Shown piece after piece: positions 527 through 3,124 of a DNA stretch of 64,000 bases. The notes under the pieces were generated by a model. The model had not been told where the DNA came from. It searched no databases and saw only the letters and a list, made by a program, of their open reading frames with translations. How positions within the stretch are numbered: position 1 is the first letter of the stretch; each line of letters starts with the position of its first letter. Made by a program: the position numbers and the translations under genes. The DNA is from an uncultured bacterium (GTDB lineage: Bacteria; Hydrothermota; Tepidihabitantia; SM23-42): positions 22,297-86,296 of the forward strand of contig CAYQPW010000005.1 of NCBI GenBank assembly GCA_964419565.1. Direction: 5' to 3'.

Positions 527-3124
527 TTATTCTTTTAAGAAAATAATCTTTCTAACTTCATTCGGGTTATTTGTATCGAATCTAACAAAATATATTCCCG
601 CCCCAACGTAATCGCCAGCATTATTTTTACCATCCCAGACAACATAATTAGATTGCCTAATATGATGATAGTCGAATTCTCTAACTAAACTTCCACAAAC
701 ATCATAAATTTTCAGATTAGCTGTGCTGTTATTAATTAACTTGTATTTGATTTTTGTGGTTTGTGTGAACGGGTTCGGAGAATTCTGAGATAAAGAATAA
801 TTCATACTCTGCATATGATGATCGCTTTCGTTAATCCCCGTAAAACTCTGAAATTTACCCCAGATGCGCATTGTATTTGCTGGACGTGCACCTATGCTAT
901 CAGTAAAGCCTGTATAGGTAATCAGAAACTTATTTGAACCCTTTGTTAAAGCAGGTTCAAGCTGGAGATTGGGTTGGTCTGAAACCATAAATTCTTCGAT
1001 TACAGTACCTGAAGGATCTACATAGCAACCATAAATATCCGTATAATCACCGTTACGCCAATCTTCCCAGATCACACAGTAGTTTTGGCCATCAAATTCA
1101 ATCTCGGGAGAATACTGGGCAGAAGTTGCTATACAGAGTGGTATACCCATAGTATCCAGGACTACGCCATCTTGTGTCACACGAGCACCGTATATGTCAG
1201 CACAAGCATAGCCATTGCGTCTGTCTTCCCATACAACTAAATAATTTGAACCATCAAATGCGATTGATGGATTCCATTGTCTATAAGAACCTGCAGCAAT
1301 TGGTATTAAGATTGTATCTAAAAGCACGCCCGTAGTATCGATACGTACACCATAGATATCAAAAGTAGTTTCGTGAGTCCCGTAATACCAGACCACAAAA
1401 TAGTTCGTGCCATCAAATGCGACTGCTGGATGTCTGTCATAGTATACGCCATTTGAAATTAATATAGCAGTTGTGTCTAAAACTAATCCTGTTGTATCAA
1501 TTCTAACTGCACAAATATCATTATTGTATTCCCATGCGACAAAATATCGTGTACCATCAAATATTATTGATGGATTATCGCCGCCATTTGAAGATACATC
1601 AATTGTATCTATAGCAATACCAGCTGTATCAACACGCACCGCTTTGACACCGCTACACACTGTTAAGTAATTGGTTCCGTCAAATGCAACCACTGGATTC
1701 GCTCCATCAATGATTGGAATCCCGTTAGGGTTTAATACTGTTCCGAAATTATCCGCTCGAGTACCATAGACATGAGAAGGTAAACTGTCACGGTCATCCT
1801 CCCATACTGCGAAATAATTTGCGCCATCAAAACATGTTGAAGAGGAACGACCTGCATAGGCTGCCATGGATAGAAGTATAGATGTAGTATCAATAACGAC
1901 CCCTGATGTTTCTATCCGGGCGCCATGTATTTCATCATCACTGAATTGTCCTGTGTGCCAAGTGATAAAATAATTTGTGCCGTCAAAAGCCACAGATGTT
2001 GCATGATCGTCATAAGTTGTATCCTGCGATACAACTATAGGAAAAGTATCTAAGACTGTACCTGAAGTATTCACCCGAACGCAGTAAGTGGTTGCATAAT
2101 CTGACCAGGCGACTAAGTAATTTGTGCCATCAAAGTCAGTTGATGGATGATATTCATAGTTTGGAAGTGTCGATATCGCAATACTATTTGTATCCAATAC
2201 AATACCGGCTGCATCTACTCGAGCACCATAAATATCAGCATTATTAGGGTTAGAACGCCAGTCTTCCCAGACTACAAAATAATTCTCACCATTGAACGTG
2301 ACTGAAGGATTCAATTGATTGTCAGTTGCAGCACATATAACGATTACGTTAGTGTCTAATACCGATCCAGATGTAGCTACACGAGCGCCACTGATATCTG
2401 TATTGCCCCAAACTACAAAATAATTAGTGTTATCGAAAGATACAGAGACAGAGGCATATTCTCCTAGGGTTGATATTAAGATTCCTCCAGGATCTAAAAT
2501 CGTACCATTAGGATTCACACGACAACCATAGATACCAGCTGGAACTCGCTGATCATACCATGCTACGAAGAAGTTAGTTCCATCAAAAGCAATAGCCGGT
2601 ACAGCCTGTACAGTCGCTGGTACGACTGAAATCTCTAATCCACCAGGGTCTAACACCACGCCATTGGTGTCAATGCGTACCCCATAAATATCTCCACCAA
2701 GACCCTGACGAAAATCACTCCAGGCGATAAGAAATACACCATCTCCATAGGCAATACCAGGCGGGCATGGCAAATATCCGGCTATTAGGACATAGCACGA
2801 TATAAATATACCTGCTGAATCCAACACTATTCCTTCAGGGTCAACACGACAACCATATATATTGTAATATGCACTCATGTCGTAATGGTAAGAGATCCCT
2901 TTACTCCAGTCATACCAGGCAATAAAATAATTTGTACCATTAAAAGCTATGGACGGATGACTTTGACCGGAGGGTTCAGGCATGAAGATAATATTCGTGT
3001 CAAGCAAAAACCCGTTGTTTTGTGCTGGTAAAGGAGAACCATATGCCGTACTTATAAGGATTACTAAGCTAAGAATTTCCATAATTTTTGTTCCCTTAAT
3101 TGCATGAAAGGCAACCCTCATCAT
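527..3124 (-). CDS. T9SS-sorted secreted protein with about 13 tandem ~42-aa repeats (consensus hAFDGTNYFVVW.D.R....DIYG.RV...G.VLD..GI.IS). A probable signal peptide ('MEILSLVILISTAYG') starts at the second Met
   Basis: The repeat motif is obvious in the translation. The C-terminal ~80 aa ('NPFTQTTKIKYKL..KIYDVCGSLVREF..GIYFVRFDTNN..KIIFLKE') look like a por/T9SS C-terminal sorting domain. Confidence 0.7.
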   Translation of the reverse strand: MMRVAFHAIKGTKIMEILSLVILISTAYGSPLPAQNNGFLLDTNIIFMPEPSGQSHPSIAFNGTNYFIAWYDWSKGISYHYDMSAYYNIYGCRVDPEGIVLDSAGIFISCYVLIAGYLPCPPGIAYGDGVFLIAWSDFRQGLGGDIYGVRIDTNGVVLDPGGLEISVVPATVQAVPAIAFDGTNFFVAWYDQRVPAGIYGCRVNPNGTILDPGGILISTLGEYASVSVSFDNTNYFVVWGNTDISGARVATSGSVLDTNVIVICAATDNQLNPSVTFNGENYFVVWEDWRSNPNNADIYGARVDAAGIVLDTNSIAISTLPNYEYHPSTDFDGTNYLVAWSDYATTYCVRVNTSGTVLDTFPIVVSQDTTYDDHATSVAFDGTNYFITWHTGQFSDDEIHGARIETSGVVIDTTSILLSMAAYAGRSSSTCFDGANYFAVWEDDRDSLPSHVYGTRADNFGTVLNPNGIPIIDGANPVVAFDGTNYLTVCSGVKAVRVDTAGIAIDTIDVSSNGGDNPSIIFDGTRYFVAWEYNNDICAVRIDTTGLVLDTTAILISNGVYYDRHPAVAFDGTNYFVVWYYGTHETTFDIYGVRIDTTGVLLDTILIPIAAGSYRQWNPSIAFDGSNYLVVWEDRRNGYACADIYGARVTQDGVVLDTMGIPLCIATSAQYSPEIEFDGQNYCVIWEDWRNGDYTDIYGCYVDPSGTVIEEFMVSDQPNLQLEPALTKGSNKFLITYTGFTDSIGARPANTMRIWGKFQSFTGINESDHHMQSMNYSLSQNSPNPFTQTTKIKYKLINNSTANLKIYDVCGSLVREFDYHHIRQSNYVVWDGKNNAGDYVGAGIYFVRFDTNNPNEVRKIIFLKE

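Follow-up and report, generated by a model that had tools for sequence, protein, structure and literature searches.

Within a 64,000-nucleotide stretch of the genome of an uncultured bacterium (GenBank assembly GCA_964419565.1, contig CAYQPW010000005.1, positions 22,297 to 86,296; hereafter the window), an open reading frame (ORF) on the minus strand encodes an 865-amino-acid protein that consists almost entirely of tandem repeats and whose body is predicted with good confidence to form two seven-bladed beta-propellers in tandem, followed by a C-terminal domain (CTD) for type IX secretion system (T9SS) sorting. The protein represents a new sequence family, the fold, secretion route and tandem-propeller layout of which are all already known.

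The repeat and its predicted fold

The repeats of the 865-amino-acid protein are real and lie far above chance. A hidden Markov model (HMM) built from the protein's own units matches 14 units in it (E 5e-27 to 1.6e-13), and a model built solely from the units of a distant homologue of Archangium minus recovers 13 of them (E 1.8e-5 to 5e-24, 500 bits in total), as compared with 8 bits for the best of 200 shuffled versions of the window protein. A regular-expression scan for the anchor F-[DN]-G-x-N-[YF] finds 12 copies and one degenerate copy, AYGDGVFLIAW, and the alignment of the units resolves 13 clear units and a degenerate 14th (residues 722-771). The repeat region covers residues 38-771. 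The first-pass annotation was right to describe a tandem repeat running through nearly the whole protein, and its count of 13 stands apart from the degenerate 14th unit, but its period of about 42 amino acids does not: the units measure 41-64 amino acids (mean 51.3, median 51), and among 90 homologues the period has a median of 53 amino acids (5-95% range 48-56). The degenerate unit 14 is matched by the window-derived HMM (E 5.5e-14) and missed by the one from Archangium; the structure prediction places three long strands across residues 721-760, and Q721, P724, G729, Y737, N750 and R753-G756 are kept in homologues.

A tandem repeat at the DNA level was looked for and none was found, the periodicity being visible at the protein level only. 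Pairwise, the units are only 36-51% identical, so that the protein repeat is of old date rather than freshly amplified. When the blades of the window protein and of the Archangium protein are compared for positional orthology, no enrichment appears along the diagonal (a value as high as the observed one arises in 1251 of 10,000 permutations), which may reflect concerted evolution of the blades or simply blades that are too uniform. The window-derived unit HMM matched no other ORF in the 64 kb, indicating that the window holds no paralogue.

Each unit proceeds from strand A (PSVAF) over the turn DGTN to strand B (YLVVWxD) and the variable B-C loop, and from there through strand C (DIYGARV), the turn xxxGxVLD and strand D (GIxIS) to a variable D-A linker. 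The AlphaFold2 model, computed from an alignment of 90 full-length homologues, has a mean predicted local distance difference score of 89.8 and a predicted template modelling (TM) score of 0.80; it is all-beta with four strands per unit and places a C-terminal beta-sandwich at residues 776-862. In the predicted structure the four-stranded antiparallel blades close into a ring of seven, twice, and the best Foldseek matches are double seven-bladed chains, namely the 14-WD40 protein of Nostoc (PDB 2ymu), PorZ (5m11), Elp2 and GH74 enzymes. The four-stranded all-beta units and the double-propeller matches together argue for two seven-bladed propellers and exclude a solenoid, thereby deciding between the two folds that the periodicity had initially suggested. 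We infer that the chain divides into blades 1-7 and 8-14.

Closure of the rings presumably involves the N-terminus. The N-terminal sequence GFLLDTNIIF has the form of the C-D turn and strand D of a unit and is modelled with a strand at residues 47-49, and F39, D42 and T43 of this segment are conserved in more than 90% of the 90 homologues. With this orphan strand D at the N-terminus and a unit 14 that has none, the tally amounts to 14 copies of every strand. The completion of a blade with a strand from the other terminus is the usual way in which propellers close, and the N-terminal strand is a candidate 'velcro' strand for the D-less last blade, its presumed docking site.

A large unnamed family with a fixed module

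Searches of Pfam and NCBIfam gave nothing above threshold that genuinely covers the repeat region: WD40, Kelch, BNR, PD40, NHL, FG-GAP and Reg_prop were all absent at E <= 1, and TIGR04275 (SBBP) scored 15.6 bits against a cut-off of 85. Whether the query was the protein, the profile of the unit or that of the family, sequence searches of the PDB significantly found the CTD alone. That the repeat could not be placed in a named family by eye is thereby borne out by all three resources; a comparison with known propeller and lectin families had been proposed as a check, and it returns an ordinary seven-bladed propeller pair as the fold and no confident sequence match to a well-characterised repeat family. 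DUF3659 (PF12396) was considered and rejected, as it reaches 25.0 bits over the whole protein (cut-off 24.8) with no individually significant stretch, and a single such stretch in one homologue (P0110). Similarly, the entries Vein_beta-barrel, Ago_N_3, Profilin, GH43, Mtf2_C and others reported for homologues have nearly all no significant stretch, the exceptions being DUF3659 and GH43 in P0110 with a single stretch each. Odd scores of this kind are read as summation artefacts of a 13-fold repeat.

The rarity that the first-pass annotation implied is not borne out, as members number in the thousands, are spread over many phyla and occur in several copies per genome. A word-indexed protein search, capped at 8,000 candidates, returned at least 3,767 proteins at E <= 1e-3, the best 120 relatives all having E < 1e-211 and being 35-80% identical to the window protein, most of them near full length; the one exception in identity is a 100% identical copy from public metagenomes (P0001). 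Run against 1.84 billion representatives, one for each 50%-identity cluster, a 13-unit profile matched 19,264 at E <= 1e-3, 11,182 at E <= 1e-10 and 3,983 at E <= 1e-30. Exactly 13 matched stretches were found in 134 of the top 150 of these 19,264 representatives (10-12, 14-15 or 25-26 in the other 16), and 89 of the 90 homologues possess 13 or 14. The 13+1 module acts as a single, fixed unit. Two proteins with 25 and 26 matched units, P0124 (2303 amino acids) and P0182 (1892 amino acids), carry two full 13+1 modules, that is four propellers, on one chain.

In species-representative genomes the module resides, as judged from the best 80 loci, chiefly in WOR-3 and Stahlbacteria, with further members in Zixibacteria, Edwardsbacteria, Cloacimonadota, TA06, Eisenbacteria, Gemmatimonadota and Bacteroidota; within these best 80 loci alone, two or three copies belong to the same genome in several cases. 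The match ends short of the CTD region in Myxococcota (Archangium, Hyalangium, Myxococcaceae), Actinomycetes and a Spirochaetales bin, and the T9SS CTD is absent from the fully read proteins of Archangium, Hyalangium and an Actinomycetes metagenome-assembled genome (MAG). The Archangium protein, for which the protein collection searched holds no exact-sequence match, starts with a lipoprotein-type signal and an N-terminal domain of about 280 amino acids followed by the same 13+1 units, and the Hyalangium protein has, by eye, additional repeats of cadherin-like and PKD-like type together with a MYXO-CTERM-like tail. Common to the CTD-less members is a conserved domain of about 270-330 amino acids at the N-terminus, in front of the 14 blades (...HFAFRP...W...GH.T...; Table 1), which is absent from the WOR-3 proteins. 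Directly upstream of the family member of the Actinomycetes MAG (chromosome OY969109.1) lies a gene (L044, 2709-5051) for what appears by eye to be another propeller, with SBBP-like 'DVFVTKLD..G' repeats; its product and the actinomycete family member both end in long poly-proline stretches.

In public records, members go by no other name than 'T9SS type A sorting domain-containing protein' or simply 'hypothetical protein', and a literature search returned no paper on the repeat motif or the family, nor on the T9SS of WOR-3. With some 19,000 representatives at 50% identity, and covered by neither a Pfam nor an NCBIfam model, the family is among the larger unnamed protein families and a recurrent multi-copy surface cargo of candidate phyla that are uncultivated, WOR-3, Stahlbacteria and Zixibacteria among them. 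The definition of a fixed 14-blade double propeller provides annotators with the basis for a domain model and, as cultured Myxococcota carry the module, there is a tractable experimental target. The result fills an annotation gap and overturns nothing.

Secretion and the C25 peptidase partner

By every sequence criterion at hand the repeat protein is a T9SS type A cargo, as was proposed at the outset. Residues 783-861 match TIGR04183 (34.0 bits, cut-off 23) and PF18962 (28.1 bits, cut-off 27), the CTD also matches FlgD_ig (27.1 bits, cut-off 27), and the family profile finds T9SS CTDs and Ig-like domains of FlgD among solved structures. The gene for the translocon SprA/Sov is located in the same window (13696-19101, plus strand, 1801 amino acids; TIGR04189 323 bits, cut-off 200), directly after the dxs gene (11840-13699).

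At the other end of the protein, a hydrophobic helix predicted at residues 12-28 was judged by eye to be a Sec signal peptide. The N-termini of close homologues (MKxxx...LLLA|QNNEFLLDTN) align with M15 to A34|Q35 of the window protein (...PLPA|QNNGFLLDTN), an AAGGGA motif lies about 9 nucleotides upstream of the ATG of M15 (3080-3082), and no motif resembling a ribosome-binding site precedes M1. The true start is thus probably M15, the listed M1 lying 14 codons too far upstream, and the mature protein probably begins at Q35 after cleavage at PLPA|QNNGF. Cleavage that leaves an N-terminal glutamine, in the window protein as in the homologues P0002-P0016 (...LLLA|QNNEF), resembles the 'Q-rule' of Bacteroidetes, which PMC5837995 describes as not general in the lineage concerned. 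By analogy with Bacteroidota, the protein would be exported by Sec, cleaved before Q35 and folded in the periplasm, upon which the type A CTD would route it through the SprA/Sov translocon for display on, or release from, the outer surface.

The repeat gene follows, after a gap of 6 nucleotides, a gene on the same strand for a gingipain-like C25 cysteine peptidase. From its sequence, this protein has the layout of an RgpB-type gingipain, with a signal peptide, a weak propeptide match, Peptidase_C25 (129.6 bits), an Ig-like domain and a T9SS CTD (Por_Secre_tail, 33.1 bits); among solved sequences gingipain R comes nearest (E 0.009), and the catalytic cysteine motif of the two aligns. A promoter-like TTGACA-16-TATAAT site (12 of 12 consensus positions) upstream of the C25 gene, whose start codon (5593-5595) follows an AGGAGG, is likely the operon promoter for both genes, and the 6-nucleotide gap together with this -35/-10 match is consistent with one operon, so that C25 and propeller are probably co-transcribed. 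The two-gene block with a C25 peptidase cargo, recognised already in the first-pass annotation, recurs in four further loci (L001, L002, L086 and L087), where C25 precedes the propeller gene on the same strand at a distance of 6-136 nucleotides; L001 and L002 are two loci of one MAG, the C25-paired loci have at least three different flanking contexts, and all four propellers share 60% identity or more with the window protein. That a gingipain-like protease is repeatedly paired with the propeller suggests one concrete functional hypothesis.

On one flank of the pair lies lpxB, in conserved synteny (window 5763-10746; L002; L087). The other flank has genes for a NAD-dependent epimerase and a B12-binding radical SAM enzyme and then an unannotated gene for 353 amino acids, which is syntenic in L002 and apparently in L087, and the window flank also holds a PMT_2-like glycosyltransferase. 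Possibly, these flanks represent an envelope-glycan neighbourhood next to T9SS cargo. A second T9SS cargo of the window (48887-50584), which was thought to share a loose 'flavour' with the repeat protein, proved unrelated, with an hhalign probability of 0.8% and no match to the unit HMM; it contains two Asp-box-like SxDxGxTW motifs, SDDGGITW and STDYGITW.

Table 1. Coordinates of the repeat protein, its units and associated features (window positions unless a locus is named)
Feature	Position	Strand	Residues and remarks
Repeat protein, complete coding sequence	527..3124	minus	865 amino acids; from the ORF list; stop codon 527-529
N-terminal signal peptide region	3023..3124	minus	1-34; AlphaFold2 helix 12-28; homologue N-termini
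Mature N-terminal segment	2963..3022	minus	35-54; orphan G-F-L-L-D-T-N-I-I-F; weak unit-HMM match 38-49
Unit 1	2771..2962	minus	55-118, 64 amino acids; long B-C loop insertion; window HMM E 4e-24, Archangium HMM E 2.9e-16
Unit 2	2606..2770	minus	119-173; anchor degenerated to AYGDGVFLIAW; E 7e-16
Unit 3	2456..2605	minus	174-223; E 4e-20
Unit 4	2315..2455	minus	224-270; E 7e-12
Unit 5	2153..2314	minus	271-324; E 1e-21
Unit 6	2006..2152	minus	325-373; E 3e-12
Unit 7	1850..2005	minus	374-425; presumed end of first seven-bladed propeller
Unit 8	1703..1849	minus	426-474; E 8e-14
Unit 9	1580..1702	minus	475-515; shortest, 41 amino acids, B-C loop deleted; E 1.8e-5, the weakest
Unit 10	1436..1579	minus	516-563; E 6e-10
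Unit 11	1277..1435	minus	564-616; E 1e-18
Unit 12	1115..1276	minus	617-670; most canonical; E 5e-24
Unit 13	962..1114	minus	671-721; E 1e-12
Unit 14, degenerate	812..961	minus	722-771; strands A, B and C, no strand D
T9SS type A C-terminal sorting domain	530..799	minus	776-865; predicted beta-sandwich; TIGR04183, PF18962, FlgD_ig; AlphaFold2 strands 776-862
Gingipain-like C25 cysteine peptidase gene	3131..5595	minus	upstream partner; frameshifted near 5' end
Poly-G run, 7 G	5534..5540	minus	frameshift site in C25 gene; sequences read directly
Promoter-like site TTGACA-16-TATAAT	5678..5705	minus	12/12 consensus matches, upstream of C25 start
Second T9SS cargo	48887-50584	plus	565 amino acids; CTD residues 479-563
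N-terminal domain of CTD-less member, L045 (Myxococcota)	5293-6150		
N-terminal domain of CTD-less member, L061 (Myxococcota)	5164-6000		
N-terminal domain of CTD-less member, L044	5017-6000		

Proposed function and comparison with known systems

Across the 90 homologues, 207 alignment columns are conserved at 85% or more, of which 197 fall on recurrent framework positions of the unit (P3, F7, D8, G9, N11, Y12, V14, W16, D18, R20, I27, Y28, G29, R31, G36, V38, L39, D40, G43, I46, S47 and Q53) and the remaining ten, beyond the mapped units, on the N-terminal segment and the CTD with five each. As just three of the recurrent positions are represented once only, essentially nothing is blade-specific, and conservation of the framework alone speaks against one active site shared by the whole family. 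Within the unit, conservation is lowest in the B-C loop and the D-A linker, which according to propeller convention form the top face, the usual ligand surface (general description in PMC8916777). The longer members are fused to partners with matches to Kelch, Big_13, CARDB, Ephrin_rec_like, MopE-type and Disintegrin-like repeats; in the 12 long members scanned no catalytic domain is backed by an individually significant stretch, the sole enzyme-family entry being Glyco_hydro_43 in P0237 with 29.0 bits (cut-off 32.2) and no stretch.

Framework-only conservation, variable loops, adhesion-type fusions and multi-copy spread favour a non-catalytic, multivalent surface binding scaffold, working in this subfamily with the gingipain-like protease, a reading to which we give about an even chance. 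The conserved framework would present top-face B-C and D-A loops that vary between blades and paralogues, and the propeller would probably supply substrate or surface binding for the probably co-transcribed C25 protease, as a separately encoded counterpart of the adhesin domains fused to some gingipains. The repeats, the fold, the CTD, the size and spread of the family and the pairing of the genes are shown by the analysis; that the protein is secreted, is displayed at the surface, binds a ligand and cooperates with the protease is what we infer.

Several observations weigh against the binding scaffold or its link to the protease. A family-wide conservation scan would miss an active site made of subfamily-specific residues, several structural neighbours of the propeller are enzymes, and T9SS processing outside Bacteroidota is assumed by analogy. 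No C25 gene lies beside four distant members (P0011, P0014, P0033 and P0096), and in a survey of 79 genome loci an adjacent C25 was found only in L006 and L007, which are the places of L001 and L002, while three further loci have a C25-like gene within 6 kb. These two results rule out C25 adjacency as a family-wide trait, and since distant members are unpaired the link belongs to this subfamily and not to the whole family. In addition, the C25 gene of the window is frameshifted, its signal-peptide codons being out of frame with the rest: tblastn with an intact homologue of 821 amino acids places residues 20-821 in one frame and 1-24 in another, and the intact, 86% identical C25 homologue of L001 has 8 G where the window has 7, which amounts to a -1 frameshift in the window. 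The difference in the poly-G run may stem from an error of sequencing or assembly, or it may mark a surface protease under slipped-strand phase variation.

In a more specific form, the binding scaffold would be a multivalent lectin that, as in PLL, PHL, BP39L and CV39L, would bind a sugar at each blade junction, with up to 14 sites. The unit profile matches CV39L once per blade on DGxxYLVxWQD (compare FDGxNYLVVWxD), hhalign assigns a probability of 68% over 20 columns to the family profile and of 81% over 16 columns when blade is compared with blade, the periods are equal at about 52 amino acids, and the sugar sites of the PLL family sit between blades (PMC6943638, PMC5584973). Yet the similarity is confined to these 16-20 columns of the A-B hairpin at HMMER E values of 0.8-1, the rest of the blade motif is unlike CV39L (DIYGARV and GxVLD as compared with GNWHxG and LPxPSGY), and each unit has one conserved tryptophan (position 16) while the fucose sites of the PLL family use two per site (PMC5584973). 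Furthermore, the bangle lectins of the PLL family (PLL, PHL, PLL3, BP39L, CV39L; PDB 5c9o, 6gxr, 6gxs) are single propellers that oligomerise, whereas the window protein is predicted to have 14 blades in two propellers and carries a T9SS CTD. The likeness to CV39L appears to be a local resemblance that may stem from distant common ancestry and does not amount to membership, and the lectin is unlikely, though it retains a real chance.

Beyond the binding scaffold as such, the C25-propeller operon might encode a two-component surface protease with the propeller as its dedicated substrate-capture or regulatory subunit, the family at large being a diversified receptor repertoire on one chassis in WOR-3-like bacteria; this extension is a long shot. 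A structural surface coat, in which an abundant, protease-resistant propeller has no specific ligand, would accord with the very large, multi-copy family and with the rigid, highly conserved framework, but this analysis gave no sign of self-assembly and the diversified loops and adhesion-type fusions fit recognition better, so that a mere coat is improbable.

An enzyme whose active site lies in the cleft that separates the two propellers, or on one of their faces, such as a GH74-like hydrolase, a polysaccharide lyase or a CylK/Vgb-like lyase, is distinctly improbable. While GH74 double propellers are among the Foldseek matches (TM-score 0.49), an enzyme-family sequence match is absent, GH43 being marginal in homologues (41.5 bits in a single stretch in P0110; 26.2 bits, below the cut-off of 32.2, in P0083). 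Every column conserved at 85% or more lies in unit positions, the N-terminal segment or the CTD, the fusion partners found include no supported catalytic domain, and the repeat protein has neither a BNR match nor the Asp-box motifs (SxDxGxTW) expected of a GH74- or sialidase-like protein. In CylK, a Friedel-Crafts alkylating enzyme whose propeller domain has been solved (PDB 7ron), an N-terminal Ca-binding beta-roll packs on the propeller and both jointly form the active site (PMC8916777); this Ca-binding domain is absent here, where about 20 residues precede the first blade, and PDB searches with the unit and family profiles gave no detectable sequence match to CylK.

That the pair is a PorU/PorZ-like T9SS attachment device, with C25 as the sortase and the propeller as a PorZ-like partner in anchor delivery, is very improbable indeed, because, although PorZ (PG1604, PDB 5m11) likewise consists of two beta-propellers and a T9SS CTD and ranks second in Foldseek (E 3e-14), PorU is a C25-type peptidase with a CTD and the two genes are adjacent and kept as a pair, the PorZ model NF052228 reaches 22.1 bits against a cut-off of 260 on CTD residues 800-856 only, the PorU model 25.5 bits on C25 and 23.2 on the repeat protein against 420, C25 has the layout and size of RgpB with gingipain R and not PorU as its best solved match, and the pair is present twice in one genome. 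Outside the CTD there is no sequence kinship with PorZ, and the TM-score, at 0.41-0.46, does not surpass those of Elp2 or GH74. PorZ is moreover a single-copy component of the machine in Bacteroidota, whereas the module occurs in at least three copies in single genomes and extends to Myxococcota and Actinomycetes, the members read from Myxococcota and an Actinomycetes MAG lacking the T9SS CTD.

Among the known tandem 14-blade proteins, the Nostoc protein 2ymu, Elp2 and the GH74 xyloglucanases resemble the window protein in having two seven-bladed propellers per chain (Foldseek E 4e-15 to 6e-11). They differ in belonging to the WD40 or BNR/Asp-box repeat families, the Pfam models of which are unmatched here, and share only 8-13% identity. 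A possible functional counterpart to the favoured binding scaffold is provided by the gingipains RgpA and Kgp of Porphyromonas gingivalis, in which a T9SS-secreted C25 protease works at the cell surface with non-catalytic haemagglutinin-adhesin domains. There the adhesins form one chain with the protease and differ in fold, whereas the propeller of the window, the candidate binding partner, is a separate gene product. The proposed analogy between the two systems is one of function only.

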